From IMG/VR virus record IMGVR_UViG_2529292718_000007: a stretch of DNA of 49,349 bases; one strand, given 5' to 3'. The position numbers and the translations under genes were made by a program. This document shows positions 1 to 49,349 of the stretch, one piece after another (positions within the stretch are counted from its first letter, which is position 1; the number at the start of each line of letters is the position of its first letter). The DNA comes from a virus. Its lineage: Duplodnaviria > Heunggongvirae > Uroviricota > Caudoviricetes. The notes under the pieces are model-generated. The model ran no database searches. It saw only the letters and a program-made list of their open reading frames with translations, and was not told the origin of the DNA.

Positions 1-1002
1 TTGGTTGCTGCGGTTGTGTCAGGGATGTTTACTGTCTTTATTAAAACAGACGCTCCTGATGGGCCAGTCGGTGAATCGGGTATCCCTCAGTACGAGCAGA
101 TCGATAACCATGATGATAACACCCAAGAAATGGGGAATGGCTCCATAGTAAGTTTGGGTGAAGGTGAGTCGATAGATACAGCAAATCCCGGGCGACCAAA
201 TACGGCATTTGATGGTTTTGTTGTCGCCATATGCCGTCAAATTGGGGCTGCTTTAGAACTCCCTTACGAACTCTTGGTAAAGCATTTTACAGCAAGTTAT
301 AGCGCAAGCAGGGCCGCATTACTTGAAGCCTGGAAAATGTTCCGTATGCGACGTGACTGGATGGTTCAGTCATTTTGCCAACCGATCTATGAGGAATGGT
401 TGGCCGAAGCCGTTGCTAAAGGTCGTGTTATTGCCCCTGGTTTTTTTTATGGGCCTGAATATCGCGCTGCATGGAGTGGCGCTCAATGGTATGGCCCATC
501 ACAAGGCCAATTAGATCCTCTTAAAGAAGTCAAAGCTGCAAAACTGCGTGTTGAGGAAACATTCTCTACCCGTGAAAAAGAAGCGGCTGAAATGTCAGGT
601 CTTAACTGGGAAGAAACCGCACAAATCTGTGGCAGAGAAGAGAATGCTCGCCGTGAGTTGGGGCTTATTACACCTCCTGTTTCTGAGGTAAATGAACAAA
701 ATATGGAGACTGATGATGCCTAATTGGTGGGAAATAAAAAATAGCACGGGTGAAGATGACTCTCCGGCTGAGCTTTTAATTTACGGGTATATTGGTGAAT
801 TTGATGAGGTTTCTTCTTCTGACATAGTTAATAAATTAAAGGATATTTCATCAAATACTATCAACGTAAAAATTAATAGTTATGGTGGTTCTGTTTTTAC
901 TGCTCAAGCTATTCTTTCATCATTAAAGCGTCATAAGGCGAATATTACGGTTTATATCGACGGGATTGCTGCATCGGCTGCAACTATTATTGCAATGGCG
1001 GG
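1..1002. repeat. Window-terminal direct duplication: 1-1002 identical to 48348-49349 (circular genome wrap; unit length 48,347 bp)
   Basis: Direct comparison of first and last ~1 kb; ORF 1..723 has the same 240 aa as the C-terminus of ORF 47496..49070. Confidence 0.95.
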
Positions 1003-1780
1003 TGATAAAATTATTATCCCATCTAATTCTATGATGATGATCCATAATCCGTGGACATTTGCTGCTGGCGATGCGGATGAATTGCGTGATATTGCTGAGA
1101 TGATGGATAAGATACGCAATAGTATTTTATCTGCATATAAGGAGAAAACAGGGCTTTCTGAGGATAAATTAATTGAACTAATGGATCAGGAAACATGGCT
1201 AAATGCAGAAGAGGCTGTAGAGCTTGGATTTGCTGACGAAGTTGAAAAACCAATACGCTTATCCGCTTCTATAAAGGAAGGGATGCTTTCGCTTAATGGA
1301 ATAACTTTTGAAGCATCAAGGTTTTCAAAATTACCTGATTCACTCGCAAAGTTGCCGCAAAATAAAAATGAGTTATCTACTGAATCAAATGAACAAAATG
1401 AGGACGATATTGTGACTCTTGATGAATTAAAAAATAAATATCCAGAATTATACAATCAGGTTTTTAATGCTGGTAAAGACGAGGGCGTTAAATCAGAACG
1501 CGAGCGCATTGAAACAATCGAGAATAGCGTGATTCCTGGTCATGACGACCTGGTTAAGAATGCAAAATTCAAAACAGGAGTTTCTGCGGCTGAACTTGCT
1601 TTGGAAATTATGAATGCAGAGCGAGCGCGTAACAAAAACTTTCTTAATCAACGGCAAGAAGACGCAAGTGAGGTGAATGATTCAGTTGATGTTAATCAAC
1701 CAGAAAACAACGGCAACAAACAGGCTGAAGCAGTAAAAAATGTTATTGGGTCAGTATTTAAAAACCGCGATAAAAATTAA
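692..1780 (+). CDS. Head maturation protease (ClpP-like, S14) with C-terminal scaffold-like domain
   Basis: 362 aa; ClpP-like core (NSYGGSVFTAQAI..., MMMIHNPW, LNAEEAVELGFADEV); acidic coiled C-terminus; start may be ATG 713/716; 5' end repeated at 49039..49349. Confidence 0.8.
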   Translation: MNKIWRLMMPNWWEIKNSTGEDDSPAELLIYGYIGEFDEVSSSDIVNKLKDISSNTINVKINSYGGSVFTAQAILSSLKRHKANITVYIDGIAASAATIIAMAGDKIIIPSNSMMMIHNPWTFAAGDADELRDIAEMMDKIRNSILSAYKEKTGLSEDKLIELMDQETWLNAEEAVELGFADEVEKPIRLSASIKEGMLSLNGITFEASRFSKLPDSLAKLPQNKNELSTESNEQNEDDIVTLDELKNKYPELYNQVFNAGKDEGVKSERERIETIENSVIPGHDDLVKNAKFKTGVSAAELALEIMNAERARNKNFLNQRQEDASEVNDSVDVNQPENNGNKQAEAVKNVIGSVFKNRDKN

Positions 1781-1789
1781 GGTGAGTTT

Positions 1790-2173
1790 ATGCGAGAGTC
1801 TTTTTCATTTGAACCAGATAATCTGATTATTTCTGGTGGTATGCCAGCAATTCCAACAAGTATTAAACTTGCCAGCGGTAAAGTAAAACGGGGTGAGCTA
1901 CTTGCTTTTGTCAGTATTGATCAGAAAACAAATGTTGTCACTGTGGCGCCAATAAATCTCTCTGGTGAAGGGGAGGCAAAAGAACCGTATTGTATCGCTC
2001 AACACAATATTGATGCGACTGATTCAGCGCAAGTCGGAACAGCATGGCTGACCGGAATGTTCAATGCACATGCGGTTATCCTTCCTGAATCAGCAAAAGT
2101 TGCCGATGTATATCTGGCTTGCCGGAAGGTTGGAATATTCCTTAATACCGCACAACAAAATCCATCTGCATAA
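1790..2173 (+). CDS. Head decoration protein (gpD-like)
   Basis: 127 aa small gene between protease and major capsid gene, lambda D position. Confidence 0.6.
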   Translation: MRESFSFEPDNLIISGGMPAIPTSIKLASGKVKRGELLAFVSIDQKTNVVTVAPINLSGEGEAKEPYCIAQHNIDATDSAQVGTAWLTGMFNAHAVILPESAKVADVYLACRKVGIFLNTAQQNPSA

Positions 2174-2193
2174 TATAAAGAGGTCGTATTTTT

Positions 2194-7193: not shown

Positions 7194-9986
7194 ATGGCCA
7201 GCAATAAGAACTTTAAGCTGGCTTTTGAAATTGGCGGCAAAGTTGCCGCCTCTCTCCCCAAAAGTTTTACTACAGCTAATCAGGCTGTTGCTAAATTAAA
7301 TGCCGAGCTTGCTGGATTAACGAAAGAACATGGGGAAATTCAAAAGCTACAATCTGTAAAAGTAAAGGTTGGACAGACTGCCCTCGAATATCATAAAGCT
7401 GCCGCTCGCGTTGAAGAGTTACAGAAGCAAATAAAAAACACGGCCAATCCAACCAGAGCGATGCTTCGTGACTTTGAGAAGGCAAAAACACATTCATCGA
7501 ATTTACGAGCATCACTACGTTCTCAGCGTGAAGAACTGGCCGCTTTAAAGTCTGCCTATCAGGGAGCTGATACATCTGCCAGAGCTTTGGCCTCAAGAGA
7601 GAAAGAGCTTAAAGCCAGCATTGATCGTAATCGTGAGGCTCAGGCCCGTAGCGTTGAGCAGGTTAACCGCTACAGAACGGCTTTGGCTTTAGCCAGAGCA
7701 AATGTTCAGCAAGTGAAAAAACAGCAGGAGGAACTTAACCGGGCATTAGAAAAACAACGTATTGATAAAATTAACAGCTATAAAAATGCGTTGGCTGAAG
7801 CACGGAAAAATGTTCTTGCAGTAAAACGTGCTCAGGAGGAGTTAAACCGCGCGTTGGAAAGGCAGCGTGAATTGAAGCGAGAGCATCTTGGTGAGGCAAA
7901 GAGTCAACTTGTAAGGTCAGGATTACAAACTGGTGCTGTAGCGGCTGGTGCATTTGCTGCTGCTAACAATGCAGCAAATTTCAATCGTGAAAACAAAATG
8001 ATTGGTCTTACGGCAGATATGAAGCCGGAAGAAGTTCAGGCGATGGGGCAGGCGATGCTTGTTACCGGAACGGCTACCAACCAGTTTGCATCTGATATTC
8101 AGGCCGCTCAGGGTTTTCTCGTAGCTGCTGGGCAGGATTATAAAGAGGCTCAGGCGAATCTACTAACTATTGGGCGAACAGCTACAGCTACTGGCTCTGA
8201 TATCCTCGATGTCTCGAAAGCATCATTTACATTAAGTGACTCATTGAAGATTGATCCATCTCAAATGAAGTCTGCAATGGGGATTCTGGTTCAGGCAGGG
8301 AAAGAGGGGAACTTTGAATTTAAAGATATGGCCAAAAATCTTCCTGTGCTTGGTGCTCAGTTCCAGGCATTAAAAATGGGAGGTAAAGAAGCAGCCGCGA
8401 CGATGGGTGCAGCTTTGCAGATAGCTCGCAAGGGGGCTGCAACTTCGGATGAGGCTGCTAATAATATGAACAACTTTTTGGCAAAAATACTTTCCCCTGA
8501 AACACTAAAAAAAGCAAAGAAAAATTTCGGTGTAGATTTATATAAAATTGTTACAACAGCGCAGAAAAAAGGGAAGAATCCATTCGAAGCTGCAATGCAT
8601 TCTGTCATGAAAATGACTAAGAACGGAGATCAGAAGTTACTTGGTGAACTATTTGGCGATATGCAGGTTCAGAACTTTGTTCGTCCGATGATTCAAAACT
8701 GGAAGGAATACCAGAGAATCAAAGCAACATCTCTTGGAGCTGGAAGTGCTGTTATTGACCGCGATTTTGCCAACATAACGAAAGATAATGCGGAGCGATT
8801 GAAACAATTACGTATTCAGGCTAGCAATGCATCATTAAGTTTTGGTCAGGCCTTGCAACCTGCTTTGAATGCCGCGCTTAGTGTTTTGGTTCCGCTGATT
8901 ACAAAAATTAGTGAATTTGTAGCTAACAACCCCAATTTTGTGTCTCAGATAGTGATGGCGGCAGGTGCGTTTCTAACCATGAAAAGTGTGGTTATAGCGT
9001 GTAGGGTAGCTATGCTGGCTTTATCTGTAGCGACAAAGCTAACACCCTTCGGGTGGATTCAGATGGCTATATCTGCGCTGGTTGCCGCAGGAATATTGCT
9101 CTATCAGAATTGGGATAAGATCAGAGATTATGCTGTCAGAGTTTGGCCTTCTGTTAAGGAATATACAGTTAAATCATTTGAGGCTATAAAAAACTTTATC
9201 TTAAACTTTGACCTCAATGGATGGATTATATCTATGTTTGGTAAAGCATGGGATTATCTTTCCAACATAAACTGGAGTTCGGCAGGTGTAAGAATTTACA
9301 GTACATTAATTAGTGCTTTTAAATGGATGTCTCCGCTTCCGTTCTTAATTAAAGCATTTAAAATTACAACAAATTACCTTTCTGGCATTAACTGGAGCGA
9401 AACAGGAAAGAAAATCATAGATACACTGGTATCTGTTTTTATGCGTTTTTCACCAGTTGGACTCTTTATAAGAGCATTCCAATCTGTAACGACTTATTTA
9501 TCTGGAATAAACTGGAGTGAGTCAGGCGCAAAAATAATTGAGACGTTAATCACTGGGATAAAATCAAAAGCAAATGCTTTAATTAATGAAGTGAAAGGCG
9601 TTTTTTCTTCTGTACGTGAGTATTTACCGTTCTCTGACGCGAAAAAAGGTCCATTCTCACAGCTAACAAAGTCAGGTGGTGCAATAATGACTACTCTGGC
9701 ATCAGGTGTTAGCAGGAATAACAGCTTACAGAATGCAATAGCAAGCAAGTTCGGGCAATCAAATTTATCACCTCACGGGATATCTGCCGCCGGGACTTCT
9801 GGACCTCGCCAGAACGTTAACGCTGTGACTGGTGGAATAACCTATTCACCTGTAATCAATCTTCCGGCTGGTTCACCAAAGGAAACTGAGGCGGCAGCTA
9901 AAAGAGCATTAGATGCGGGATATTCTGATTTTGAGAAGAAATTGAGTGCTCATATGTTCCAACAACGGAGATTAAGTTTTGGATGA
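7194..9986 (+). CDS. Tail tape measure protein
   Basis: 930 aa; coiled-coil N-terminal region with repeated QEELNRALE segments, hydrophobic central region; position. Confidence 0.85.
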   Translation: MASNKNFKLAFEIGGKVAASLPKSFTTANQAVAKLNAELAGLTKEHGEIQKLQSVKVKVGQTALEYHKAAARVEELQKQIKNTANPTRAMLRDFEKAKTHSSNLRASLRSQREELAALKSAYQGADTSARALASREKELKASIDRNREAQARSVEQVNRYRTALALARANVQQVKKQQEELNRALEKQRIDKINSYKNALAEARKNVLAVKRAQEELNRALERQRELKREHLGEAKSQLVRSGLQTGAVAAGAFAAANNAANFNRENKMIGLTADMKPEEVQAMGQAMLVTGTATNQFASDIQAAQGFLVAAGQDYKEAQANLLTIGRTATATGSDILDVSKASFTLSDSLKIDPSQMKSAMGILVQAGKEGNFEFKDMAKNLPVLGAQFQALKMGGKEAAATMGAALQIARKGAATSDEAANNMNNFLAKILSPETLKKAKKNFGVDLYKIVTTAQKKGKNPFEAAMHSVMKMTKNGDQKLLGELFGDMQVQNFVRPMIQNWKEYQRIKATSLGAGSAVIDRDFANITKDNAERLKQLRIQASNASLSFGQALQPALNAALSVLVPLITKISEFVANNPNFVSQIVMAAGAFLTMKSVVIACRVAMLALSVATKLTPFGWIQMAISALVAAGILLYQNWDKIRDYAVRVWPSVKEYTVKSFEAIKNFILNFDLNGWIISMFGKAWDYLSNINWSSAGVRIYSTLISAFKWMSPLPFLIKAFKITTNYLSGINWSETGKKIIDTLVSVFMRFSPVGLFIRAFQSVTTYLSGINWSESGAKIIETLITGIKSKANALINEVKGVFSSVREYLPFSDAKKGPFSQLTKSGGAIMTTLASGVSRNNSLQNAIASKFGQSNLSPHGISAAGTSGPRQNVNAVTGGITYSPVINLPAGSPKETEAAAKRALDAGYSDFEKKLSAHMFQQRRLSFG

Positions 9987-10197
9987 TTATAGAACGGTTC
10001 AAGGGGACTCATGGGATAGTATCGCTTTAAAGTTGTATGGTAATGAGTACCTGTCTTATCTTCTTATTGATGCTAATACTGAGCACCGCTTTACGGTGCT
10101 TTTTTCTGCGGGAATTATTCTTAAAGTTCCTGATGCTCCGGTTATGCCAATATCAGTAAACAATTTTCCTCCGTGGAGACGCAATAGTGTTACGTAA
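9979..10197 (+). CDS. Tail protein X-like (LysM-like)
   Basis: 72 aa; QGDSWDSIALKLYG pattern resembles P2 gpX; position after tape measure. Confidence 0.6.
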   Translation: MDDYRTVQGDSWDSIALKLYGNEYLSYLLIDANTEHRFTVLFSAGIILKVPDAPVMPISVNNFPPWRRNSVT

Positions 10198-11188
10198 AAC
10201 GCTTTTTGATGTTATATATCAGAATGTAAATATTACCGCTCATATGTCACCTGATGTTTTGTCAATGTCTTATACAGATAATGAAGATGGTCAGGTCGAT
10301 GATATTTCTATTATATTAAAAAATGATGATGGGAAATGGTCTGGAGACTGGACACCTAAAAAGGGTGATTTTATTGATTTGAGCTTTAAGCCTATAAATC
10401 AAATCGTCCTTGAGTGCGGGAAATTCCAGGTAGATGGCATAACTTGCTCTGGACCACCTTCTGTGGTTGAGGTAACTGCTGTTTCTGTTCCTGTTTCATC
10501 AGGCATTAGACGTGATTTAAAAAGTAATGCATGGGAAAAAACAACTCTTAAAGATATAGCAACTTCTATAGCTAAATTAGCTAACCTTGAACTGTTGTTT
10601 CTTATTGATGGTGATAGTAATCCATATTATGCGCGTGAAGATCAAATGGAGGAAAGCGATTTAAAATTTCTCCATCGACTTTGCCAGGATGAAGGGTTGT
10701 CGTTAAAGGTCACTGATAGCCAATTAATAATATTTGCTCAAGAGATGTTTGAGCAAAAAGATCCTATCGCTACGCTTACGTTAGGTATTGATGAGATAAT
10801 CAGATATAGCTTTAGCACACAATCTACAGATTTGTATAAAAGTTGCACGTGCAAATATCGCGTACCTAAAAAAAGAAAGTCGCTTTCGTATACTTGGGTA
10901 GATCCATCCGTAGAAGAAGGGTCGAATCTTAAGATAAGAAAACTGGTAGCTAATTTAGATGAAGCAAAACGTAAGGCAAAGGCTGCTTTGCGGCTTAAAA
11001 ATAGATATCAAAATACCGGATCTTTAGTATTGGTTGGAGACACCAGATTGGTAGCTGGTGTAACTATAAATCTGGAGGGATTCGGTTCATTTTCTGGAAA
11101 ATATCTTATATCGAAAGCTGTGCATTCAATTGGGACTAGTGGTTATACCACCTCGATTGATGTCCGAAGAGTAATTAATGGGTATTAA
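10187..11188 (+). CDS. Tail protein D-like (late control D family, baseplate hub)
   Basis: 333 aa; N-terminal pattern resembles P2 gpD/Mu P family; position. Confidence 0.65.
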   Translation: MLRKTLFDVIYQNVNITAHMSPDVLSMSYTDNEDGQVDDISIILKNDDGKWSGDWTPKKGDFIDLSFKPINQIVLECGKFQVDGITCSGPPSVVEVTAVSVPVSSGIRRDLKSNAWEKTTLKDIATSIAKLANLELLFLIDGDSNPYYAREDQMEESDLKFLHRLCQDEGLSLKVTDSQLIIFAQEMFEQKDPIATLTLGIDEIIRYSFSTQSTDLYKSCTCKYRVPKKRKSLSYTWVDPSVEEGSNLKIRKLVANLDEAKRKAKAALRLKNRYQNTGSLVLVGDTRLVAGVTINLEGFGSFSGKYLISKAVHSIGTSGYTTSIDVRRVINGY

Positions 11189-11190
11189 TT

Positions 11191-11811
11191 ATGAATGATT
11201 TAGAAACATTATTACGTCAGACTATAAGAGTTGGCGTTGTTTCTGATATTGATGATGGTGATGTTACAGCAAGAGTTACTTTCGATGATCAGGATAACGT
11301 CACTTCGGCAAAGTTATCAGTTATTGTGAAAAATACAGATAAGAATGCTGATTACTGGATGCCAGATATTGGTGAGCAAGTTTTGTGTATCTTTCATCCC
11401 GCGGGGCCGCAACAAGGTTTTATTCTTGGTAGTTTTTATGATGAAACACAGAAGCCGCCATCTAATACTGTTAATAAACGCGTCATTAGATTTAATAACG
11501 GAACTCGTATTGAGATAGACAGAGAATCTAATTTACTCCTTGTTGATGCTGTCGGAGATGTAACCATTAAGGCTACAGGAACCGTAACTATTGATGCTCC
11601 AGAAACCATCATTACCGGAAATGCTACAGTTGAAGGATTACTAACCTTCAAAGGTGGAATGAAAGGATCTTCTGCTGGAGGTGTTGCAGCTACAATTTCT
11701 GGGAATGTTAAGGTTGTTGGTGGTGATATAGATGTTGATGGGATTAAATCTAAAGGCCACCATCACACAGCTCAGGGGGAATACGCTCCGACAACGGAGG
11801 CTCAGGCATGA
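11191..11811 (+). CDS. Baseplate assembly protein V (spike)
   Basis: 206 aa; gpV-like repetitive beta-helix segment TIKATGTVTIDAPETIITGNATVEG. Confidence 0.7.
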   Translation: MNDLETLLRQTIRVGVVSDIDDGDVTARVTFDDQDNVTSAKLSVIVKNTDKNADYWMPDIGEQVLCIFHPAGPQQGFILGSFYDETQKPPSNTVNKRVIRFNNGTRIEIDRESNLLLVDAVGDVTIKATGTVTIDAPETIITGNATVEGLLTFKGGMKGSSAGGVAATISGNVKVVGGDIDVDGIKSKGHHHTAQGEYAPTTEAQA

Positions 11812-14287: not shown

Positions 14288-14317
14288 TTTGCGATTTGTT
14301 AATCCAAGGAATTAAGC

Positions 14318-18895: not shown

Positions 18896-18903
18896 GCGAA
18901 CAT

Positions 18904-31787: not shown

Positions 31788-31864
31788 CAGTAAGCCTACG
31801 GCGGGACGTCTCCCGCCGTATATAGAATTATATATTTATACAAATGTATAAGGACGCCTCGACA

Positions 31865-38206: not shown

Positions 38207-38794
38207 ATGGAGGCAATTGCATTGTTTAATCTGATTTATGCAGATCCCCCCTGGGAATACAAAGATAAGTGTAAGGATGGGAATCGTGGAGCTGGTTTTA
38301 AGTATCCAACGATGAAAGCTGAGGATATTGCTCGTATTCCTGTCTTGCAGCTTGCTAATCCTGAATCGTGTTTGTTGGCCATGTGGTGGGTTCCGACTCA
38401 GCCAGAAGAAGCGTTGCTGGTGGTGAAAGCATGGGGATTCAGGCTTATGACCATGAAGGGCTTCACATGGAACAAATGTGGTAGCCGACAACCAGATAAG
38501 CTGGTGATGGGGATGGGGCATATGACTCGTGCAAACAGTGAAGATTGCTTGTTTGCGGTAAAAGGCAAATTGCCGACCCGCCTTGATGCGGGGATCATTC
38601 AGTCGTTTACATCGCCTCGTCTGGAGCATTCTCGGAAGCCTGATGTGGTTCGTGACAAGCTGGTAAGGCTGTTAGGTGATGTTCCTCGTATTGAGCTGTT
38701 TGCTCGCGGTGATTTACCTGATGGTTGGCATGGCTGGGGCAACCAGTGCAATGGAGGTATCCAGTTGCATGATGCTCTCTGGCAAGTGGTATAG
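38207..38794 (+). CDS. DNA N6-adenine methyltransferase (MT-A70 family)
   Basis: 195 aa; hallmark DPPW motif (LIYADPPWEY). Confidence 0.8.
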   Translation: MEAIALFNLIYADPPWEYKDKCKDGNRGAGFKYPTMKAEDIARIPVLQLANPESCLLAMWWVPTQPEEALLVVKAWGFRLMTMKGFTWNKCGSRQPDKLVMGMGHMTRANSEDCLFAVKGKLPTRLDAGIIQSFTSPRLEHSRKPDVVRDKLVRLLGDVPRIELFARGDLPDGWHGWGNQCNGGIQLHDALWQVV

Positions 38795-39905: not shown

Positions 39906-40112
39906 GTGGACTTGCCGAGTGATTTGTTCTGGTTTCCGCTTCCAATAAGAGATTTGTTGGTATTTCTGGCTGGCGCTTACGTCTGGAGAAAAGCGAAGGA
40001 CACCTCGTTATCTTTGAGGTTTGTCTTAGCTATATCGGTAGGAACCGCGCTGGGAACGGCGTATCTCTTGATATTACTGGAGATATTCATTGAAGAATGG
40101 ATAGTTTCATGA
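39906..40112 (+). CDS. Small membrane protein
   Basis: 68 aa, GTG start; two hydrophobic segments. Confidence 0.4.
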   Translation: MDLPSDLFWFPLPIRDLLVFLAGAYVWRKAKDTSLSLRFVLAISVGTALGTAYLLILLEIFIEEWIVS

Positions 40113-40261
40113 ATGGTGTTGGCATTTTTCTGATGGTTGTGGCCGTGTGTTTTTGTATCTCGCTGGTGGTTATCGCTGGTGTCCTGTGGCGCATCTTAGT
40201 GGCGCAGAGAGCTTTTCGGCGTAAGCGGGAGCAATTGCGCCTTGATTTCTATCGAAAGTAA
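40109..40261 (+). CDS. Small membrane protein (50 aa)
   Basis: Below track cutoff; ATGA overlap; hydrophobic core then basic C-terminus; followed by terminator. Confidence 0.3.
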   Translation: MNGVGIFLMVVAVCFCISLVVIAGVLWRILVAQRAFRRKREQLRLDFYRK

Positions 40262-40270
40262 CTCTTACAG

Positions 40271-40297
40271 CCTCGCGGTGTCGCGGGGCTTTTTATT
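40271..40297 (+). terminator. Rho-independent terminator
   Basis: CCTCGCGgtgtCGCGGGG followed by CTTTTTATTTT. Confidence 0.6.
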
Positions 40298-40310
40298 TTC
40301 AGGTGATGTT

Positions 40311-40721
40311 ATGGAAAAGAAAGAAGATAAACCGATTGCCATTGGTGCAGATGCTGTTCCGTTTAAGTTTGAATTATCCCAACTGGTAACAATGCGTATC
40401 AGTGACGAATGGGGAGAAGTTAAAGCCCGTGCTCAGTATGCAAATGGCGAAAACCAGTATCTGATTCACTATCAGGCGGCTGATGGCCGTGCTACCACAG
40501 AGTGGTTCGGTGAGTCGATGCTGATTGCGATGGAGGATAAACGTCATCCTGGCTGCCCTGTTTTTGCCTGTATTGATTTGCCAGAAGGCGCGGTACTTGA
40601 AGACGACAAAGAAGAATGGTCGCCTGATGGCGAACTTGTCATTACCGGAATCGTGGATGGTAAGCAGGAATATTCCCGTATTGAGGTAAATAACGGCCAC
40701 ATCTGTTTGATCCCTGCGTAA
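40311..40721 (+). CDS. Hypothetical acidic protein
   Basis: Track ORF 40242..40721 spans the terminator; ATG 40311 has AGGTGA SD. Confidence 0.5.
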   Translation: MEKKEDKPIAIGADAVPFKFELSQLVTMRISDEWGEVKARAQYANGENQYLIHYQAADGRATTEWFGESMLIAMEDKRHPGCPVFACIDLPEGAVLEDDKEEWSPDGELVITGIVDGKQEYSRIEVNNGHICLIPA

Positions 40722-40955
40722 CGCATTACAGCAGCTCTTGTGCTTATCAGGGGCTGCGATAATGCGCAAACCAAAGCTGCCTCATTAACTCCAGCTCGCT
40801 GTGGAGTTAATGCTGGTGGCTTTTTTATTACTGGAAGGTGGGCGACCGCCGTCAGTTGCGACCTGACGACAGTCATTCATACCCACAGGGTGCCGTGGAT
40901 ACAAACCGAGGCCCACTTGCTTGCACAAGCGAGGGGATTTTAGCGGATAAACGGC

Positions 40956-41579
40956 ATGACAAAACATCTTAATGTGGTTTCTTTACCACTTTCTGTGTTG
41001 ATTGGTTATGAAAAGAACGCTCGCACACACTCCGTGGAGCAGGTAGATCAGATTGTTGCCAGCATACAGGAGTACGGATGGACTAATCCGATCCTGATAG
41101 ACGAGAACAACGTTGTAATTGCTGGTCATGGTCGAATTGCTGCGGCCACTCAGTTGGGGATGGATGACGTTCCCTGCATTGTTCTGGAAGGGCTAACGGA
41201 GAATCAGAAGAAGGCATATCGTCTGGCCGACAACCGTATTCCGCTGAATGCTGGTTGGGATGAAGAGCTGTTAAGCGCGGAGCTTGCAGATCTTGCGGCC
41301 GATGATTTTGCTCTGGACTCAATTGGTTTTACTCAGCGCGAACTGGATAACTTATTGAGTGCGGCGGTCTACGATGACACAGAGGGTATGGATATCCCAT
41401 TTGAGAAGGATGAGGCCAAATCAGGCGTAAAAGTTCAGTACCTGTCATTTGGAGGTCATAAAATCCCGGCAACGGATGAGGAAGCGGATCGTTTTGACTG
41501 CGCGGTGTCTCGTTATGTTGATGATAATGGCAGCTATATCGGATTTGTATCCGCATTGCTGGCTGGGGAGGGGTGCTGA
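40956..41579 (+). CDS. ParB-like nuclease domain protein
   Basis: 207 aa; N-terminus parallels 44245..44835 (KNARTHSVEQVDQIVASIQEYGWTNPILIDENNVVIAGHGRIAAA). Confidence 0.7.
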   Translation: MTKHLNVVSLPLSVLIGYEKNARTHSVEQVDQIVASIQEYGWTNPILIDENNVVIAGHGRIAAATQLGMDDVPCIVLEGLTENQKKAYRLADNRIPLNAGWDEELLSAELADLAADDFALDSIGFTQRELDNLLSAAVYDDTEGMDIPFEKDEAKSGVKVQYLSFGGHKIPATDEEADRFDCAVSRYVDDNGSYIGFVSALLAGEGC

Positions 41580-42952
41580 TGCTTCACCTCAATTACGACA
41601 TAACGCACCTACGTGGCGCGGAATATAACCCGCGTTTTATCGGTGAGGATGATCTTGCGAGGCTGGCGGAAAGCGTCAGGGAGCTGGGGCTTGTGAAGCC
41701 ATTGATAGTGCGTGGCGATTTGCTGGTGGCGGGACACCAAAGGACGAAGGCGCTACGTAAGTTGGGAATAACGCGTGCTGCGGTGTATGTGTTGCCCTGT
41801 GAAACGACGGTATACGACGAAGTACGGTTTAACCAACTGCATAACGGAACGGATTTTGATAGCGGAGATGAGCGTTGCAGGGTGTCCGGTCTGGAAGATA
41901 AGCATGGTTTTGTTCAGGTATCGGCAAGCCAGATCTCAGGCAATATGCGCGCGAAAATGGCATATGTTCGAAAGAACATAGCGGAACTGGTTATCAAGTA
42001 TGGTCCGTGGGGTGGTTGTGTTGCTACTCAGTCTGGCGAGGTTATTCACTGTGCTCAGTATGCATTAGCAGCGAAGATGACGCGCACACCGCTAACGGTG
42101 TTTGTGATCCCTGATGTTGAGAAGGGAAAATACCAAAGTTATCTGAATAAAACTTATGGTGTATTTGAGTATTCTCATCTGGAGAAAACAACATACATCC
42201 AGACGTATGCGCAGCTTATGCGGTTGCGTAATGGTGGCAGCCTGAAATCAAACCTGTATGAGTCGTTGATCCTCCCGATCATCGCCAAGACGCCAAGAGG
42301 AATTGATTTTGGTTCGGGGCAGGGAGACTACGCGCGAATGCTCAGGGCAAAGGGATATAACCTGCATGATCTCGAGCTTTTCCGCCGTAAGGGCGCTGGA
42401 AACACTCTGGATAGGACCGCAACAAACCGGATGATTGATACGCTGGTGGACGACTTAAAAACGCGAGGGCGTTACGACTACGTGATTTGCGATAGCGTTT
42501 TGAACTCGGTCGATAGTGTCGAGGCTGAATGGTCCGTTCTGACGGTTCTGAAAGGCCTGTGTAAAGCTGGTGGGTCAATATTCTTTTCTGGTCGTAGCCG
42601 TGGAGAGCTGGAAACAGTCCTGAAGCAAACACAAGCGGCGAGTTCCAAAAGCCGGCTTTATTTTATTGATCATAACGGTTTTACCGCGTTGTACCGGAAG
42701 GGGCACTGGTTTTACCAGAAGTTTCACTCTGATGATGAAGTGAAGCAGTTGTGTCGTGTACATGGTTTCAGGATTAAGCGGTCAATATTCAACTGTAAGA
42801 GCTGGTATTTGCACGTCATTAACGATGATTCCCTTAGTTGGGCGAGTCTGGAGAAAGCTGTTCGTTTTGAGTTTGAGTTGCCGTTGCCTGGTGGTTCAAC
42901 AATCGGACGATCTGATGATGTGCTGGCGGCTTTCCGGCCGTTGATTAAGTAG
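41573..42952 (+). CDS. ParB-like N-terminal domain fused to a class I SAM-dependent methyltransferase-like domain
   Basis: 459 aa; N-terminal ParB-like motif (LIVRGDLLVAGHQRTKAL); C-terminal SAM motif I IDFGSGQGDYA with downstream acidic residue and YVICDSVLN motif; no DPPY/DPPW motif. Confidence 0.55.
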   Translation: MLMLHLNYDITHLRGAEYNPRFIGEDDLARLAESVRELGLVKPLIVRGDLLVAGHQRTKALRKLGITRAAVYVLPCETTVYDEVRFNQLHNGTDFDSGDERCRVSGLEDKHGFVQVSASQISGNMRAKMAYVRKNIAELVIKYGPWGGCVATQSGEVIHCAQYALAAKMTRTPLTVFVIPDVEKGKYQSYLNKTYGVFEYSHLEKTTYIQTYAQLMRLRNGGSLKSNLYESLILPIIAKTPRGIDFGSGQGDYARMLRAKGYNLHDLELFRRKGAGNTLDRTATNRMIDTLVDDLKTRGRYDYVICDSVLNSVDSVEAEWSVLTVLKGLCKAGGSIFFSGRSRGELETVLKQTQAASSKSRLYFIDHNGFTALYRKGHWFYQKFHSDDEVKQLCRVHGFRIKRSIFNCKSWYLHVINDDSLSWASLEKAVRFEFELPLPGGSTIGRSDDVLAAFRPLIK

Positions 42953-42968
42953 TGTGTAGGAGGCGCTG

Positions 42969-43688
42969 GTGGCTGACAGAATTGAGATAAAGATGGATTT
43001 TTCTTCTCAGGATATTCAACGACAACTCCAGCGCCTTGAAGAACGCGAATTGCCGTTCGCAATGGCGCTTGCGGCAACCAGAACGGCAAAGGCTTCTCAG
43101 GCTGCGATTAAGAATGAAATTAATCGGGTATTTGACAGGCCCACGCCGTGGATTCAGAACTCTACTTACGTTTTGGCCGCAAAGAAGAGTGATCCTACAG
43201 CCATTGTGTATGCTCGTGAATGGGGAGGAACGCCAGCCCCTGTAACGTTGACTCCGCAAATCGAAGGTGGACAACGACAGTACAAACGCTCAGAAGGGGC
43301 GCTAAGGGCTGGTGGATATTTGCCTAACGGCTGGCAGCTTGCTCCTGGTCCCGGCGCAAAGCTGGACAAATACGGGAATATTTCGCGGGGGCAATTACAG
43401 CAGGTCTTATCTGGCCTAAGAGTTCAGCGAGATGCGCATCAAAATCGCCGTCAGGGCAAGCCTACGGAGTTTTTTGTTGTTCGACCTGGTACAAGTAACC
43501 CGCTTCAACCAGGCGTCTGGCAGCGCGTTGGGCGGCGTCCTACGTTGATCCTTACGTTTATCCAGCAACCTAACTATTCGCAGCGTCTTGATTGGCATGG
43601 CGTGGCGCTGCGTGCTGGTGAGGATGCGTTTGCTGATGAAGTCACAAAGGCTATTGATGACATTCTTTCTAAGACTTTCTCTCGTTAA
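42969..43688 (+). CDS. Hypothetical protein
   Basis: 239 aa ORF; no family recognised. Confidence 0.5.
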   Translation: MADRIEIKMDFSSQDIQRQLQRLEERELPFAMALAATRTAKASQAAIKNEINRVFDRPTPWIQNSTYVLAAKKSDPTAIVYAREWGGTPAPVTLTPQIEGGQRQYKRSEGALRAGGYLPNGWQLAPGPGAKLDKYGNISRGQLQQVLSGLRVQRDAHQNRRQGKPTEFFVVRPGTSNPLQPGVWQRVGRRPTLILTFIQQPNYSQRLDWHGVALRAGEDAFADEVTKAIDDILSKTFSR

Positions 43689-44244
43689 TCATCGTGTGGT
43701 TGATGGTGTTGTTATGCAGAGTGTATTCACTGTGTTCTGTAGCGTCGCTCGCTGGCTGTCTGTGGGGGAGCACGAGCATCGTTTCATCGTCCGGCAGAAT
43801 TGGGTCCTTCTGGCCAAAAGCGTTGGATGCGGGTCATTCGAACCCCGATATTCGGCTAGCTAAACGTGAAAAAAGTTAGGTTAAAAGTTGCGGTAAAAGA
43901 AATTTACTCATCTCATTGAAAAATATCGGGAAAACGTGATTTTTTCTGTATTTGTACTGGTAAAAAGAAAGTGGAAAATTTTCTTTTAGATCATCAAGAT
44001 ACGCGCAGATCTTTAACCAATGTGATGTTGTTCTGATAAAAATCGTTATAAATCATGCAAATACATCCAATCTTTTAACCAAAACACCATCGCAAGATCC
44101 TTTTTACTTATAAAAACTTAATAAAATCAGATAATTATGCTGGTTTGTGTGATTTTTTATGAGTAAAAAGATCGTCATTTTTCTCTTTTAGTATCAATAA
44201 GTTAAACAGTTTTCTTTAACCTGTTGTGTTATGGCGGTTAAAAA
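43689..44244. promoter_or_regulatory. AT-rich intergenic region upstream of packaging/structural operon (candidate late promoter and packaging-site region)
   Basis: About 550 bp without convincing ORFs; three TCTTT(T)AACC repeats (44010-44018, 44071-44080, 44213-44221) and four GATC sites within about 185 bp. Confidence 0.4.
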
Positions 44245-44835
44245 ATGGCTCTAAAAATCGAATATTTACCAGTCGGTAAGTTGCTCAGATATGCCAAAAA
44301 TTCACGGACTCATTCAGATGAGCAAGTTGAACAGTTGGTGAACAGTATCCGTGAGTTCGGTTTCACTAATCCTGTGCTGATCGATGAAAAGAATGAACTG
44401 ATTGCGGGGCATGGGCGGCTTGCAGCAGCCGAAATTCTGGAAATGGATAAAGTTCCGGCGATTCGGTTGAGTAACCTTTCTGAAAAACAGAAGAAGGCTT
44501 ACAGGATTGCAGATAACAAGCTGGCCTTAAATGCTGGCTGGGATATGCAGCTTCTGGCCGAAGAAGTCAAAGAGTTAATGGATGATGATTTTGATATTGA
44601 TCTGCTTGGGTTTAATGATGCAGAGCTTGACGAAATGTTAAGCGATGAACAGCCGCAGGAAGAAGACGATAATTCTTCCCCTGTTGTTCAAATTAAGTAC
44701 CTGGCTATTGATAAAGAACGTATTCCCGCGACGGATATGGAAATTGCATTGTTGCTGGATGTTTATCGTCAGTACCACGACGCGCATGAAACGCATGAGG
44801 GATTTGTTCAGTATCTTGCTAATGGTTGCAAGTAA
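44245..44835 (+). CDS. ParB-like nuclease domain protein, immediately upstream of terminase genes
   Basis: 196 aa; N-terminal ParB/Srx-type motifs (KNSRTHSDEQVEQL, LIAGHGRLAAA); paralog of 40956..41579; stop overlaps terS start. Confidence 0.7.
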   Translation: MALKIEYLPVGKLLRYAKNSRTHSDEQVEQLVNSIREFGFTNPVLIDEKNELIAGHGRLAAAEILEMDKVPAIRLSNLSEKQKKAYRIADNKLALNAGWDMQLLAEEVKELMDDDFDIDLLGFNDAELDEMLSDEQPQEEDDNSSPVVQIKYLAIDKERIPATDMEIALLLDVYRQYHDAHETHEGFVQYLANGCK

Positions 44836-45386
44836 TGGCCATCGTCAGTAAGTCAGAGTTTGCCCGCCGGAAAGGTATTTCTCCGGCAATGGTTACGAAG
44901 CTCTGTCGTTCCGGTCGCATTCCAGTGCTGAAAAGCGGCAAGCTGGATTTTGATAAAGCCAGTGCGGCTTATGAAGCGAGCCGACAGGTTGGTCGTGAGG
45001 TATCTGCTGAAAATGGAAAAAGAGGGCATGGGATATCTTCGGAACAACCAGAGTTACCCGCTGATGATGCCGGATTAGCTGGTGGTACTTCCGGTGTTGC
45101 GGTGCAATTCAACAAGGCTAAGACCGCAGAAAAAATTTATCAGGCAAAGCTGAAACGCCTTGAATTTGAAGAAAAGGAAGGCTCTCTCATCGCTAAAGAT
45201 GCGGTCAGGGATGATGCATTTCTGGCAGCTAATGAATTGCGTAGCCGCTTATTTAGTATTGCTCCAAGAGCAGCTCCCCGTTGTGAAGGCAAAACAGCCA
45301 GGGAGATCGAGCGCATTATTGAAGACGAGATTAATTTTGCGCTTCAGGCGCTCCAGGAATCCCGATTTATTAAGCAGGAAGAATAA
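44835..45386 (+). CDS. terS: Terminase small subunit (Nu1-like, N-terminal HTH)
   Basis: Position directly before large terminase; N-terminal HTH-like segment SKSEFARRKGISPAMVTKLCRSGRIP; track ORF starts at TTG 44826, ATG 44835 preferred. Confidence 0.6.
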   Translation: MAIVSKSEFARRKGISPAMVTKLCRSGRIPVLKSGKLDFDKASAAYEASRQVGREVSAENGKRGHGISSEQPELPADDAGLAGGTSGVAVQFNKAKTAEKIYQAKLKRLEFEEKEGSLIAKDAVRDDAFLAANELRSRLFSIAPRAAPRCEGKTAREIERIIEDEINFALQALQESRFIKQEE

Positions 45387-45391
45387 ACCTC

Positions 45392-47248
45392 ATGGGCGAA
45401 ACAGTATGGAGCACCGCTTTTTTCCGTGCGCTTCGCCCTAAATCACGGCTAACTGTTTCCGAATGGGCTGATAAGTATCGTCATGTAGCGCCGGGAACGT
45501 CTCCAGAGCCAGGGCCGTGGCGTACAAGCCGAGTGCCATATTTGCGTGAACCAATGGATGTTATTGGTGACGCTGATACAGAAACAGTAGTGATGCAATG
45601 TAGCTCGCAAATTGGTAAATCCGAATTACAGCTAAATGTTATGGGTTACTTTGCAGATCAGGAGCCATCTCCTCAGTTGATGATTTATCCAACGGTAGAG
45701 GCGGCTGAGGCTTTTTCAAAAGAGCGTATTGATCCGACGTTCAAATATTCCCCTGGTTTGAAACACAAGCTGCATGAAGGGAAAGAGGGGCGCGGTGCAG
45801 CCAAAAAGTCCAGCACGACTATACGTATGAAGCATTACGCTGGTGGATATATAGCACTTGTTGGTGCTAATTCCCCAGCAGGTCTTGCATCCAGGCCAAT
45901 TCGAATACTGTTAGGTGATGAGATTGATCGTTACGGTGTGACGCAGGAGGGCGACCCACTAAAACTAGGTATTCAGCGTACTACCAACTTTCATAATCGT
46001 AAGAAAGTTTTTGTTTCTACTCCTGTTTTGGAGGAAACAAGCAAAATCCACAAGTGGTTTAAGCTCTCCGATCAGCGTTACTACCATGTTCCTTGCCCAT
46101 GTTGTGGCACCATGCAGGTGATGAAATGGTCGCAAGTCAGATGGGATAAGAGCGATTCAGGTGAGGCGTTACCGGAAACGGCCAGATATGAGTGCTGTGA
46201 GTGCGGCGGGATTATGCGCGGATCTGGTAAACCAGACGTTGATTGGTTGGCGAAGGGGGTATGGATAGCTGAACATACTGGAGTTAAAGGTATTGTTGGT
46301 TTTCATATTAACAGTCTTTACTCCCCGTGGGTTGCATTGTCAGAGCTGGTTGAAGAATTTACGGAAGCAACCAGAAACCGCGATAAAAATGGATTAATGG
46401 AGTTTATTAACCTTAAGCTGGGTGAGCCATGGAAAGAGGATGCTAAAGACGATATCGATCCTGAATACTTGTTGCAACGCAGAATAAGGTTTGAAGAGTT
46501 TTTACCAGATGATGTTTTATTGTTAAGTGCTGGTGTTGACGTACAGGACACGTATTTAGTTTGTGAATTGGTCGGTTGGGGAAAAGGTAAGGAGTCATGG
46601 GGGATAGAATATAAAATATTCCCAGGTGATCCCGCACAAGATGTTGTCTGGAAACAACTTGATGAATACTTACTCCGTAGCTGGTCATTCCGTGACGGTC
46701 GAAAATTACAGATTTCTTCCGTTTGTATTGACTCTGGTGGGCATTTTACGACAGAGGTATATCGCTTTACTAAGCCGAGAGAATCAAGGCGAATATACTC
46801 TATCAGGGGGCGTGGTGGGGTAGGTTTACCATTTATAGGAAAGCCAAGTAATAATAACCGTGTGGGTGCTATGTTGTTTAATTTGGGGGTTGATGATGGT
46901 AAAGGGACCATCATGGCAAGAATTAAACTACATGATCCTGGTCCTGGTTATATGCATTTCCCATTAGATTCTGACAGAGGATATGATACCGAATACTTTA
47001 AAGGATTATTATCAGAGAAAAAAATATTTGAATATAAAAATGGGCAGACAAAAGAAAAGTGGGTGAAAGTCTACGAGCGTAACGAGCCTCTTGATTGCCG
47101 TAACTATGCAACTGCCGCGATGGAAATTCTGAACCCTAATTTTAACTGGCTTGCCGAACAGGAAATGCGAGGTAATGTGTATGTGCAGAACTCGTCAGGT
47201 ATACGTAGAAGACGCCGTAGAGTTATAAGTAAAGGCGTAACCATATAG
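45392..47248 (+). CDS. terL: Terminase large subunit (lambda GpA family)
   Basis: 618 aa; GpA-like features (TVSEWAD, Cys-rich CPCCG...CCECGG, ICIDSGGH) and position before gpW-like and portal genes. Confidence 0.85.
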   Translation: MGETVWSTAFFRALRPKSRLTVSEWADKYRHVAPGTSPEPGPWRTSRVPYLREPMDVIGDADTETVVMQCSSQIGKSELQLNVMGYFADQEPSPQLMIYPTVEAAEAFSKERIDPTFKYSPGLKHKLHEGKEGRGAAKKSSTTIRMKHYAGGYIALVGANSPAGLASRPIRILLGDEIDRYGVTQEGDPLKLGIQRTTNFHNRKKVFVSTPVLEETSKIHKWFKLSDQRYYHVPCPCCGTMQVMKWSQVRWDKSDSGEALPETARYECCECGGIMRGSGKPDVDWLAKGVWIAEHTGVKGIVGFHINSLYSPWVALSELVEEFTEATRNRDKNGLMEFINLKLGEPWKEDAKDDIDPEYLLQRRIRFEEFLPDDVLLLSAGVDVQDTYLVCELVGWGKGKESWGIEYKIFPGDPAQDVVWKQLDEYLLRSWSFRDGRKLQISSVCIDSGGHFTTEVYRFTKPRESRRIYSIRGRGGVGLPFIGKPSNNNRVGAMLFNLGVDDGKGTIMARIKLHDPGPGYMHFPLDSDRGYDTEYFKGLLSEKKIFEYKNGQTKEKWVKVYERNEPLDCRNYATAAMEILNPNFNWLAEQEMRGNVYVQNSSGIRRRRRRVISKGVTI

Positions 47249-47259
47249 AGGAAATATAA

Positions 47260-47499
47260 ATGAACAATGAAGCATTTTCTCTGACTGAAGCCAGAGAGAT
47301 GTTATCTGTCTGGCGGGAAGCATATCGCGCTATTGCTATTGGCGGTCAGTCATATAAATTTGGTACGCGGCAGTTAACTCGTGCGGATTTATCAGAAGTC
47401 AGAAAAGAGATGGATTACTGGCGTAATGAAGTAGAAAGATTATCAGCAGGTGTACGCCGAGGCCCACGAATTAAACGAGTGGTGATAAGAGATTTATGA
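47260..47499 (+). CDS. Head-tail joining protein (lambda gpW-like)
   Basis: 79 aa between terminase and portal, as gpW in lambda-like head modules. Confidence 0.6.
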   Translation: MNNEAFSLTEAREMLSVWREAYRAIAIGGQSYKFGTRQLTRADLSEVRKEMDYWRNEVERLSAGVRRGPRIKRVVIRDL

Positions 47500-49070
47500 A
47501 TATTCTTGATCGAGTTATTGCGCCGTTTTCACCTCAGAGGGCATTAAATCGAGCTTTGGCAAGAAAACGGTTAGAAGCACTTGAAGGTATTAATAACCTT
47601 GGATATTCACGTCATGGTGCAAGCACTCATAAAAAATCATTAAGGGGTTGGTTTAGTAAAGCTGGTTCTCCTGATGATGATATTGTTAAAAATATAGATA
47701 AATTGCGTGAGCGTTCTCGTGATCTCTTCATGGGAAACCCGCTATCTGTTGGCGCAATAAAAACTATCAGGACAAACGTTGTTGGTTCCGGTTTAAAACT
47801 AAATGCGAACATTGATGCCGATTTCTTGGGGATGACGCAGGAAGAAGCGCGAGCATGGGAAAAGCATGTTGAGCGTGAGTTTAGATTATGGGCTGATTCT
47901 CCAAATTGTGATGCATCAAGAATGTGTACTTTTGGACAATTGCAATCATTGGTCCAAATATCTGCGTTAACATCTGGCGATATATTTGCTGCGCTACCAG
48001 TTATTAAGCGTAAGGGTGTTATATATGATTTGTGCGTCTATTTAATTGAAGGTGATCGTGTTTGCAATCCAGAGGATCGTTTTATACCAAATCTTTACGG
48101 TGGCGTAGAGGTTGGTGAATTTAGCGAGCCTGTGGCGTACTGGGTTGCAAAACATCACCCAGCCGGGACTTCTGGTTTTGTAACCCGCAAGTGGGAACGT
48201 ATTCCCGCATATGGGAGTAAAACAGGAAGAAGAAATATTCTGCATGTCATGCAGGATTTTGAAAGGCCTGGGCAACGCCGTGGCGTTCCTGTCCTTGCTC
48301 CTGTAATTGAAGCATTGAAGCAGTTAGGGCGATACACCGATGCTGAATTGGTTGCTGCGGTTGTGTCAGGGATGTTTACTGTCTTTATTAAAACAGACGC
48401 TCCTGATGGGCCAGTCGGTGAATCGGGTATCCCTCAGTACGAGCAGATCGATAACCATGATGATAACACCCAAGAAATGGGGAATGGCTCCATAGTAAGT
48501 TTGGGTGAAGGTGAGTCGATAGATACAGCAAATCCCGGGCGACCAAATACGGCATTTGATGGTTTTGTTGTCGCCATATGCCGTCAAATTGGGGCTGCTT
48601 TAGAACTCCCTTACGAACTCTTGGTAAAGCATTTTACAGCAAGTTATAGCGCAAGCAGGGCCGCATTACTTGAAGCCTGGAAAATGTTCCGTATGCGACG
48701 TGACTGGATGGTTCAGTCATTTTGCCAACCGATCTATGAGGAATGGTTGGCCGAAGCCGTTGCTAAAGGTCGTGTTATTGCCCCTGGTTTTTTTTATGGG
48801 CCTGAATATCGCGCTGCATGGAGTGGCGCTCAATGGTATGGCCCATCACAAGGCCAATTAGATCCTCTTAAAGAAGTCAAAGCTGCAAAACTGCGTGTTG
48901 AGGAAACATTCTCTACCCGTGAAAAAGAAGCGGCTGAAATGTCAGGTCTTAACTGGGAAGAAACCGCACAAATCTGTGGCAGAGAAGAGAATGCTCGCCG
49001 TGAGTTGGGGCTTATTACACCTCCTGTTTCTGAGGTAAATGAACAAAATATGGAGACTGATGATGCCTAA
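47496..49070 (+). CDS. Portal protein (lambda gpB family)
   Basis: 524 aa following terminase/gpW; C-terminal 240 aa repeated at 1..723 because the window wraps. Confidence 0.85.
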   Translation: MNILDRVIAPFSPQRALNRALARKRLEALEGINNLGYSRHGASTHKKSLRGWFSKAGSPDDDIVKNIDKLRERSRDLFMGNPLSVGAIKTIRTNVVGSGLKLNANIDADFLGMTQEEARAWEKHVEREFRLWADSPNCDASRMCTFGQLQSLVQISALTSGDIFAALPVIKRKGVIYDLCVYLIEGDRVCNPEDRFIPNLYGGVEVGEFSEPVAYWVAKHHPAGTSGFVTRKWERIPAYGSKTGRRNILHVMQDFERPGQRRGVPVLAPVIEALKQLGRYTDAELVAAVVSGMFTVFIKTDAPDGPVGESGIPQYEQIDNHDDNTQEMGNGSIVSLGEGESIDTANPGRPNTAFDGFVVAICRQIGAALELPYELLVKHFTASYSASRAALLEAWKMFRMRRDWMVQSFCQPIYEEWLAEAVAKGRVIAPGFFYGPEYRAAWSGAQWYGPSQGQLDPLKEVKAAKLRVEETFSTREKEAAEMSGLNWEETAQICGREENARRELGLITPPVSEVNEQNMETDDA

Positions 49071-49349
49071 TTGGTGGGAAATAAAAAATAGCACGGGTGA
49101 AGATGACTCTCCGGCTGAGCTTTTAATTTACGGGTATATTGGTGAATTTGATGAGGTTTCTTCTTCTGACATAGTTAATAAATTAAAGGATATTTCATCA
49201 AATACTATCAACGTAAAAATTAATAGTTATGGTGGTTCTGTTTTTACTGCTCAAGCTATTCTTTCATCATTAAAGCGTCATAAGGCGAATATTACGGTTT
49301 ATATCGACGGGATTGCTGCATCGGCTGCAACTATTATTGCAATGGCGGG

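Follow-up and report, generated by a model that had tools for sequence, protein, structure and literature searches.

The two ends of the window, by which we mean the whole stretch of 49,349 nucleotides analyzed here, carry the same sequence, and the question is whether this repeat belongs to the viral genome or to the way in which its sequence was put together. Self-comparison of the window aligns positions 1–1002 with positions 48348–49349 (neither copy having an assigned strand) with 0 mismatches in 1,002 positions, a match that cannot have arisen by chance. The maximal exact overlap between prefix and suffix is exactly 1,002 bp, and the unit is therefore 48,347 bp long; a repeat scan across the whole window revealed no other large repeats. 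The left copy comprises codons 285–524 of a portal gene followed by the start of a protease gene, and both edges of the overlap fall inside these two coding sequences. The complete portal gene (47496–49070, plus strand), in which the contig was opened, encodes a 524-amino acid protein of the lambda family (Pfam PF05136, E = 7e-101). Translation of the open reading frame at 1–723 yields residues 285–524 of this protein, and position 48348 lies in frame 0 of the portal gene. The adjoining gene (692–1780, plus strand; RefSeq relatives start at 716) encodes a ClpP-related head maturation protease (Pfam CLP_protease, E = 7e-32), and codons 1–103 recur at 49039–49349, where the contig end cuts the gene off. 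A preliminary description had reported the identity of the two ends, the recurrence of the C-terminal 240 amino acids of the portal protein at 1–723, the location of the repeat within portal and protease coding sequence and a unit genome of 48,347 bp; its coordinates and gene assignments all proved correct.

Through its tail-fibre protein we located the window in the public record as one whole contig of an NCBI draft assembly (AQDE01000034.1 in GCA_000355455.2; 49,349 bp, with matching coordinates). The overlap is therefore already contained in the contig as deposited, and the sequenced DNA was cellular rather than derived from virions. A 41-nt cos pattern had no match in the viral contig collection, which shows that the window does not stem from there. 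We estimate at about 95% the probability that the contig represents a circular 48,347-bp phage-plasmid from a bacterial isolate, deposited with an untrimmed assembly overlap. The assembler would have circled the molecule once and run 1,002 bp beyond its start point inside the portal gene, and the identical contig ends would be the leftover of this traversal, never trimmed. About 1 kb would also be a plausible length for padding, added when the window was cut from a circular record and not contained in any public sequence, but the public AQDE01000034.1 is itself 49,349 bp long and has its tail-fibre gene at the same coordinates, which refutes this explanation and leaves it next to no probability.

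Untrimmed overlaps of circular replicons, reported by completeness tools as a "direct terminal repeat," have the same exact end identity and arbitrary intragenic breakpoints, the same agreement of the unit with the size of closed relatives and the same single copy in closed records. The overlap described here is longer (1,002 bp) than a k-mer-sized one, and we see no other substantive difference. The end overlap is a correct but ordinary finding, of a kind that is already known. In practical terms, the last 1,002 bases need trimming so that portal and protease each enter the gene count a single time and the stated genome length becomes 48,347 bp.

Comparison with closed relatives reveals how the two contig ends are joined. 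In the closed circular plasmid NZ_CP064105.1, window positions 39913–49349 correspond to 7324–16760 and positions 1–21851 to 15759–37609; the plasmid is colinear with the window through both repeat edges and contains the segment once, which marks the right copy as redundant. ON470591.1 is 100% identical over the junction. The 1,002-bp segment is matched by 75 complete Escherichia coli genomes, in 71 of them over its full length. With three exceptions it occupies one place per record in these 71 genomes; its position and strand vary between records, which is what one expects of circles opened at arbitrary points. Plasmids account for 81 of the 82 places matched, and the element is found as a plasmid of 46–52 kb in about 72 complete E. 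coli genomes, ATCC 25922 included. In the records of related Yersinia phages, the portal region is likewise internal and single.

Duplications, genuine or artefactual, do occur in this phage-plasmid family. Extra copies of the portal region are carried by two deposits, pN32b, with an internal tandem duplication of 10,175 bp that includes the portal-protease region, and NZ_CP032086.1. The pN32b duplication, the two portal places in a 94-kb record from ATCC 25922 and the fact that plasmid dimers are common speak for a real extra copy in the cell, with the contig as a piece of a larger molecule, either a multimer of the plasmid or a molecule whose portal-protease region is partly duplicated in tandem. 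The repeat studied here, however, sits exactly at both contig ends with zero mismatches, and the 48,347-bp unit is within the family range of 46–52 kb; the 94-kb record contains only one cos place (see below) and is therefore no clean dimer. We consider a real extra copy very unlikely, and a head-to-tail multimer would leave both the 48,347-bp unit and our conclusion unchanged.

A genuine direct terminal repeat, present at both ends of each packaged linear genome in the style of T7, T5 or SPO1, would equally be expected to produce exact direct repeats at the contig ends. Phages with such long terminal repeats resemble our contig in that a linear sequence begins and ends with the same directly repeated segment, but the repeat described here lies in the middle of essential structural genes, with its edges inside the portal and protease genes, in a contig of cellular DNA that came from a bacterial genome assembly and not from virions, and it is absent from virion-derived relatives and present as a single copy in closed plasmids. 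The terminase bears on the same issue. The large subunit (45392–47248, plus strand) belongs to the gpA family of lambda (GpA_ATPase PF05876, E = 1.6e-75; GpA_nuclease PF20454, E = 1.1e-84) and shares 28% sequence identity with lambda gpA over 599 amino acids (E = 3e-62), with both the ATPase and the nuclease domain matched. The gpA-family signal extends to distant members of the terminase superfamily in phages with long terminal repeats (SPO1-like), and family membership alone is therefore no proof of cos packaging; these matches are, however, distant and partial, covering the ATPase half only. In addition, where close relatives were grown as phages, their records terminate at a cos-like site that lies 4.5 kb from the repeat, with a 12-nt offset between records. 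We regard a terminal repeat in the virion DNA as highly improbable. The preference for a circular or concatemeric assembly overlap, already expressed in the preliminary description, is supported by the source contig, the single-copy closed plasmids, the 71 genomes and the cos-type ends of relatives, and the repeat should not be taken as a sign of terminal-repeat packaging.

The records of three phages grown on Yersinia pestis point to the probable location of the virion DNA ends. Those of vB_YpM_39 and vB_YpM_41 start at window position 43832; for vB_YpM_44 the start is at 43844, and the final bases are the 12-mer GGTCATTCGAAC. The record ends are offset by exactly 12 nt; two records carry the 12-mer at their left end, and the third carries it at its right end. 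All three records are labelled circular and our literature search found no paper explaining how their ends were set, and the assignment of a 12-nt end therefore rests on the record-end pattern. A cosQ-like heptamer, GGGTCCT (43802–43808, plus strand), is located 30 nt upstream of the putative nick and does not recur elsewhere in the unit, whichever strand is read. We find the heptamer at the same 30-nt distance from the nick in lambda and N15, as checked against both sequences; the lambda copy at bp 48473–48479 we take to be its cosQ. According to Feiss and colleagues (PMC4669245), cosQ is a highly conserved 7-bp element. Given the 12-nt offset of the record ends and the unique heptamer 30 nt upstream, the virion DNA most likely ends in 12-nt cohesive ends at 43832–43843 (plus strand), ∼4.5 kb from the repeat, with the 12-mer as the putative cosN sequence. 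We infer this cut site from the record ends of relatives and the geometry of lambda and N15, and the polarity of the overhang is likewise putative.

Downstream of the putative nick, a spacer with 30% GC (43870–44225, plus strand) is a candidate cosB, a function suggested by four of the six CTTT(T)AACC copies of the unit (within 43879–44221) and by a single IHF consensus match at 44192. Next comes a gene for a protein with a ParB_N (ParB/Srx) domain (44245–44835, plus strand; Pfam PF02195, E = 4e-8; phrog_620), directly upstream of the gene for the terminase small subunit (44826–45386, plus strand; phrog_57, E = 7e-42; no match in Pfam). Each of 72 E. coli genomes contains a single copy of the cos segment at an identity of at least 95%, in all cases at an internal position. 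A lambda-type terminase of the gpA family would most likely cut the replicated DNA at this cos, ∼4.5 kb upstream of the repeat, with cosQ starting at 43802, cosN at 43832–43843 and the AT-rich cosB ahead of the small terminase gene. Cutting would generate linear DNA with 12-nt cohesive ends, to be re-circularised after injection. For the phage form, numbering would naturally begin at the likely cos site.

In lambda and N15, packaging by a gpA terminase at cosQ, cosN and cosB yields 5' cohesive ends of 12 nt. The proposed packaging region resembles those of lambda and N15 in its large terminase of the gpA family with both domains, in the GGGTCCT heptamer 30 nt upstream of the nick, in the CG directly before the nick, in a 12-nt end (here deduced from record ends) and in an AT-rich, repeat-bearing spacer ahead of the small terminase gene. 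Lambda further shares the portal family, an E-type capsid protein, a decoration protein, a W-like adaptor and the order of these genes. In contrast, only 3 of 12 bases are common to the lambda cohesive end GGGCGGCGACCT and its putative counterpart here, and the downstream flank of cosN is CC rather than the CG of lambda, only the upstream CG being kept. No similarity to lambda Nu1 is detectable in the small terminase, a gene with a ParB_N domain is inserted between cos and the small terminase gene, and the tail is contractile, unlike that of lambda. We rejected a wider similarity between the cos regions, as an ungapped comparison with lambda yields 40 of 120 identities while background offsets reach 45, and we claim similarity only for the heptamer of cosQ, the distance at which it lies and the CG flank.

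The gene content defines the element as a phage-plasmid that combines an IncFII-family RepA, ParA and toxin-antitoxin systems with a lambda-type head and terminase and a contractile tail, and that has no integrase. The plasmid replication initiator RepA (18775–19752, plus strand) belongs to the IncFII RepA family (Pfam PF02387, E = 1e-43) and is annotated as repA in RefSeq relatives, and the ParA partition ATPase (26098–26766, minus strand) matches the Pfam CbiA/ParA/MipZ families and is a "ParA family protein" in RefSeq. The type II toxin-antitoxin pair (21215–21861, plus strand) consists of a HigB/RelE-type toxin of the Gp49 family (Pfam PF05973) followed by an HTH antitoxin (HTH_3/HTH_37), in agreement with the RefSeq annotation. 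A cI-like repressor of the XRE type (27369–28025, minus strand) contains an HTH_3 domain (E = 4.5e-11) and a weakly matched Peptidase_S24 domain (E = 1.8e-3). A structural, packaging and lysis set is present, with terminase, portal, capsid, sheath, tube, tape measure, baseplate, holins and endolysin. No integrase was found in the PGAP annotation of a closed plasmid relative or among window-specific open reading frames. An integrase-sized open reading frame of 380 amino acids (23348–24490) was considered as a recombinase and rejected, as it encodes an ORF6N/Rha antirepressor. A P1-type C4 antisense RNA adjoins an antirepressor gene, an RNA type that the element shares with P1.

In the cell, the element would exist as an autonomous circular plasmid prophage. 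With phage-plasmids such as P1, N15 and SSU5, the element shares the combination of temperate phage genes with plasmid replication and partition functions, the lack of an integrase and its deposition as extrachromosomal circular records. N15 is comparable to it in size and has a lambda-type cos, which might suggest a linear plasmid prophage with a repeat related to its telomeres. The repeat, however, is direct rather than inverted and is located in coding sequence, and no protelomerase is found in the PGAP annotation of a plasmid that is 99% identical over most of its length or among window-specific open reading frames; that annotation has no telomere palindrome either. With relatives deposited as circular records and a replication initiator of the IncFII RepA family, we assign no probability to a linear prophage of the N15 type and retain the circular phage-plasmid.

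Relatives that match 86% of the first 24 kb at ∼98% identity have been deposited as phages with Y. pestis EV76 as host. One and the same molecule would be a plasmid in E. coli, among others in a strain widely used for quality control, and a phage on Y. pestis, which is relevant to the tracking of phage-plasmids but opens no new question. vB_EcoM-613R2 (ON470591) was not counted as virion DNA, because its source preprint discusses it among prophages in the genomes of clinical isolates, and vB_YpM_HQ103 was rejected as a relative, being an unrelated P2-like phage of 32 kb.

We next compared the element with known phage-plasmid types. None of the ten curated types of PMC12977533 (Table 1 therein) is matched by its size of 48 kb, contractile tail, lambda-type head and IncFII-type RepA, and six accessions of the family (five plasmids and one Yersinia phage) are absent from the supplementary files of that study. 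Assignment to the pSLy3 group was rejected, pSLy3 being an SSU5-like siphovirus of 85–134 kb. A literature search by member names and by descriptive terms found no description of this family. We raise, tentatively and with more doubt than confidence, the idea of a widespread phage-plasmid lineage, maybe not formally typed, that would combine lambda-type cos packaging, in which cosQ is conserved and cosN divergent, with a contractile tail, a RepA of the IncFII type, immunity based on a P1-type C4 RNA and antirepressor, and virions able to infect Y. pestis. Any novelty, if this is true, would lie in the lineage and not in the terminal repeat. Members are present in ∼1.3% of complete E. coli genomes, and one of them is the plasmid of ∼48.5 kb in reference strain ATCC 25922. 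We also noted a match to a type I-F CRISPR spacer, and operator-like repeats are dispersed in the element.

A prefix/suffix comparison of the window showed that its first and last 1,002 bases agree with 0 mismatches and that 1,002 bp is its longest such overlap. As no overlap exceeds 1,002 bp, the unit without its redundant part measures 48,347 bp, the value proposed in the preliminary description, all coordinates of which are correct. No further long repeats emerged when the whole window was scanned. The left copy encodes, as described earlier, the C-terminal 240 aa (residues 285–524 by translation) of the 524-aa portal protein, whose gene lies at 47496–49070. Codons 1–103 of a ClpP-type protease gene (692/716–1780) lie in the left copy too, and they recur at 49039–49349, where the gene is truncated. 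The window corresponds to the complete 49,349-bp contig AQDE01000034.1 of the draft genome assembly GCA_000355455.2, the only NCBI record matched by the tail-fibre protein, and the tail-fibre gene has the same coordinates (14318–17164) in both. The overlap is thus the public contig's own rather than a pipeline addition, and cellular DNA rather than virion DNA had been sequenced.

The proposal that the overlap derives from a circular assembly and not from a true terminal repeat is supported, as closed relatives carry a single copy and the record ends of phage relatives lie elsewhere. The closed, circular plasmid NZ_CP064105.1 (47,492 bp) shares 99% identity with the window along most of its length. 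Window positions 39913–49349 align with its positions 7324–16760 and 1–21851 with 15759–37609; both window ends are therefore colinear with the plasmid, which has one copy of the segment and crosses both repeat edges. ON470591.1 (26,627 bp) spans the junction with 100% identity. Of 5,426 complete genomes of E. coli, 72 have the terminase-portal region, with plasmids accounting for 81 of its 82 places. Full-length matches to the 1,002-bp segment occur in 71 E. coli genomes, among which the reference strain ATCC 25922 is represented by several assemblies (48,403–48,488 bp). The element is already present many times in public databases. Segment-bearing records are mostly 46–52 kb long, and their segment coordinates are scattered over both strands, which fits arbitrary opening of circles. 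In one of the 72 genomes, the terminase/cos region (queries 44000–49349 and 43760–43900) is located on a record classed as chromosome. Three records have two segment places: pN32b (NZ_JBUBMH010000003.1; 57,491 bp) contains an internal 10,175-bp tandem duplication (region 21542–31998), the ATCC 25922 plasmid record NZ_CP032086.1 (94,204 bp) has one cos place as against two for the portal, and in NZ_CP032259.1 the segment is split at the record start. The pN32b duplication reaches from a tail-assembly gene to the portal gene and creates a chimeric 3.7-kb 'portal' CDS. The duplications in pN32b and NZ_CP032086.1 may represent misassemblies in records deposited as complete. The repeat in our contig is an ordinary mark of an untrimmed circular contig; its trimming matters for bookkeeping, and the finding is correct and otherwise of low interest.

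The phages vB_YpM_39, 41 and 44 (host Y. pestis EV76) share ∼98% identity over 86% of the window's first 24 kb. The records of vB_YpM_39 and 41 start with GGTCATTCGAAC, at window position 43832, and their last bases are ...GGATGCG; the vB_YpM_44 record begins 12 nt further on and finishes with ...GGATGCGGGTCATTCGAAC. Such a pattern, in which one 12-mer opens two records and closes a third, is what a 12-nt cohesive end should leave behind. We found no paper giving the method behind these record ends, and the records are labelled circular. The heptamer GGGTCCT, which we take to be lambda cosQ in agreement with the lambda/N15 comparison, occurs once in the unit (both strands), at 43802, exactly 30 nt before the inferred nick. 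In lambda and N15 it is likewise located 30 nt before the nick, which is directly preceded by CG as in the unit. CosQ has been described as a highly conserved 7-bp element required for packaging termination, and 12-base 5′ extensions are found in the lambda-type phage group (Feiss and colleagues, PMC4669245). The spacer 3′ of the nick is AT-rich (30% GC) and is followed by a ParB_N gene and the gene for the small terminase. Of six CTTT(T)AACC copies in the unit, four lie in this spacer, as does one IHF-consensus match; we consider the spacer a candidate cosB. The large terminase matches both domains of lambda gpA (28% identity over 599 residues, E=3e-62), and the cos segment is found once, and internally, in each of the 72 E. 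coli genomes (identity ≥95%). In contrast, the cohesive-end sequence has only 3 of 12 bases in common with that of lambda, the two cos regions as a whole are no more similar than background, and distant, half-length terminase relatives include phages with long terminal repeats.

We propose that the element replicates as a circular plasmid in the cell and that the assembler went round the circle and overshot by 1,002 bp, two steps for which there is direct sequence evidence. Upon induction, terminase most likely cuts cos (43832–43843), as judged from the relatives' record ends and the lambda/N15 geometry, which would generate linear 48.3-kb DNA whose 12-nt cohesive ends would anneal once injected.

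Judged by Pfam and PHROG scans and by the PGAP annotation of NZ_CP064105.1, the element is a phage-plasmid. Plasmid functions comprise an IncFII-family RepA (18775–19752), ParA (26098–26766, minus strand) and a HigB/RelE-type toxin-antitoxin pair; an XRE/S24 repressor (27369–28025, minus) and an ORF6N/Rha antirepressor (23348–24490, minus) are assigned to regulation, and holins and a GH108 endolysin to lysis. The head module follows the lambda order (small terminase, gpA-family large terminase, W-like adaptor, lambda-family portal, ClpP protease, decoration protein and E-family capsid protein), and the contractile tail consists of sheath, tube, tape measure and a P2-type baseplate. The same scans and annotation contain no integrase or protelomerase. 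None of the ten curated phage-plasmid types (PMC12977533) fits the element, which differs from them in size, type of tail and replication initiator; six accessions of its family are absent from the supplementary files of that paper, and a limited literature search found no publication naming the lineage.

Three proteins with ParB_N (ParB/Srx) domains are encoded near cos and the terminase genes (40956–41579, 41573–42952 and 44245–44835), one of them fused to a methyltransferase domain, and an MT-A70 methyltransferase gene is located at 38207–38794. The tail-fibre gene is followed by a fibre-assembly gene and a hexapeptide-repeat transferase gene (17164–18308; transferase at 17745–18308, minus). 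At the matching place, the Yersinia phages (21193–23874 in the record compared) have an invertible host-range cassette made up of fibre genes in opposite orientations and a hin DNA invertase. GC skew is positive in all 2-kb windows of positions 1–48000 (0.04–0.24, no sign change), also across the minus-strand gene block at 23–28 kb. A tRNA with anticodon CAT (37823–37898, plus) is called tRNA-Met by ARAGORN; it may be a lysidine-dependent tRNA-Ile2, because its homologue in relatives is a tRNA-Ile in the PGAP annotation. The ryfA RNA family of Rfam has a full-length match at 25286–25582 (plus; 141.8 bits); as the family includes a small-toxin (TimP-type) mRNA, the matched stretch may be a further plasmid-addiction module.

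Directly upstream of the antirepressor gene, we located gathering-level Rfam matches to C4 antisense RNA (24728–24816, minus; 70.8 bits) and isrK (24841–24914, minus; 68 bits), a layout that resembles P1 immI (c4-ant). Seven intergenic copies of an AT-rich, ∼31-nt element, TATAGAATTATATAATTATAGATTTATATAA, are each found close upstream of a gene start (21908, 26841, 30604, 31821, 37646 and 38790, plus; 26054–26099, inverted). Three copies (21909, 30605, 38791) are followed by a shared leader of ∼90 nt, 89–98% identical and ending in GGAGA..ATG. The copies look like scattered operators for one regulator, in a distribution reminiscent of the P1 C1 operators.

A 33-nt portal stretch (198–230, equivalent to 48545–48577) is 100% identical to a spacer (1501–1533 in the record compared) of an E. 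coli chromosomal CRISPR array, which adjoins clpA and whose repeat, GTTCACTGCCGTACAGGCAGCTTAGAAA, is of type I-F; two spacer matches are among the matches listed, from four chromosomal places counted. Immediately 5′ of the protospacer is CC (196–197), the type I-F PAM. Spacer identity, repeat type and PAM together indicate that some E. coli carry immunity against the phage-plasmid.
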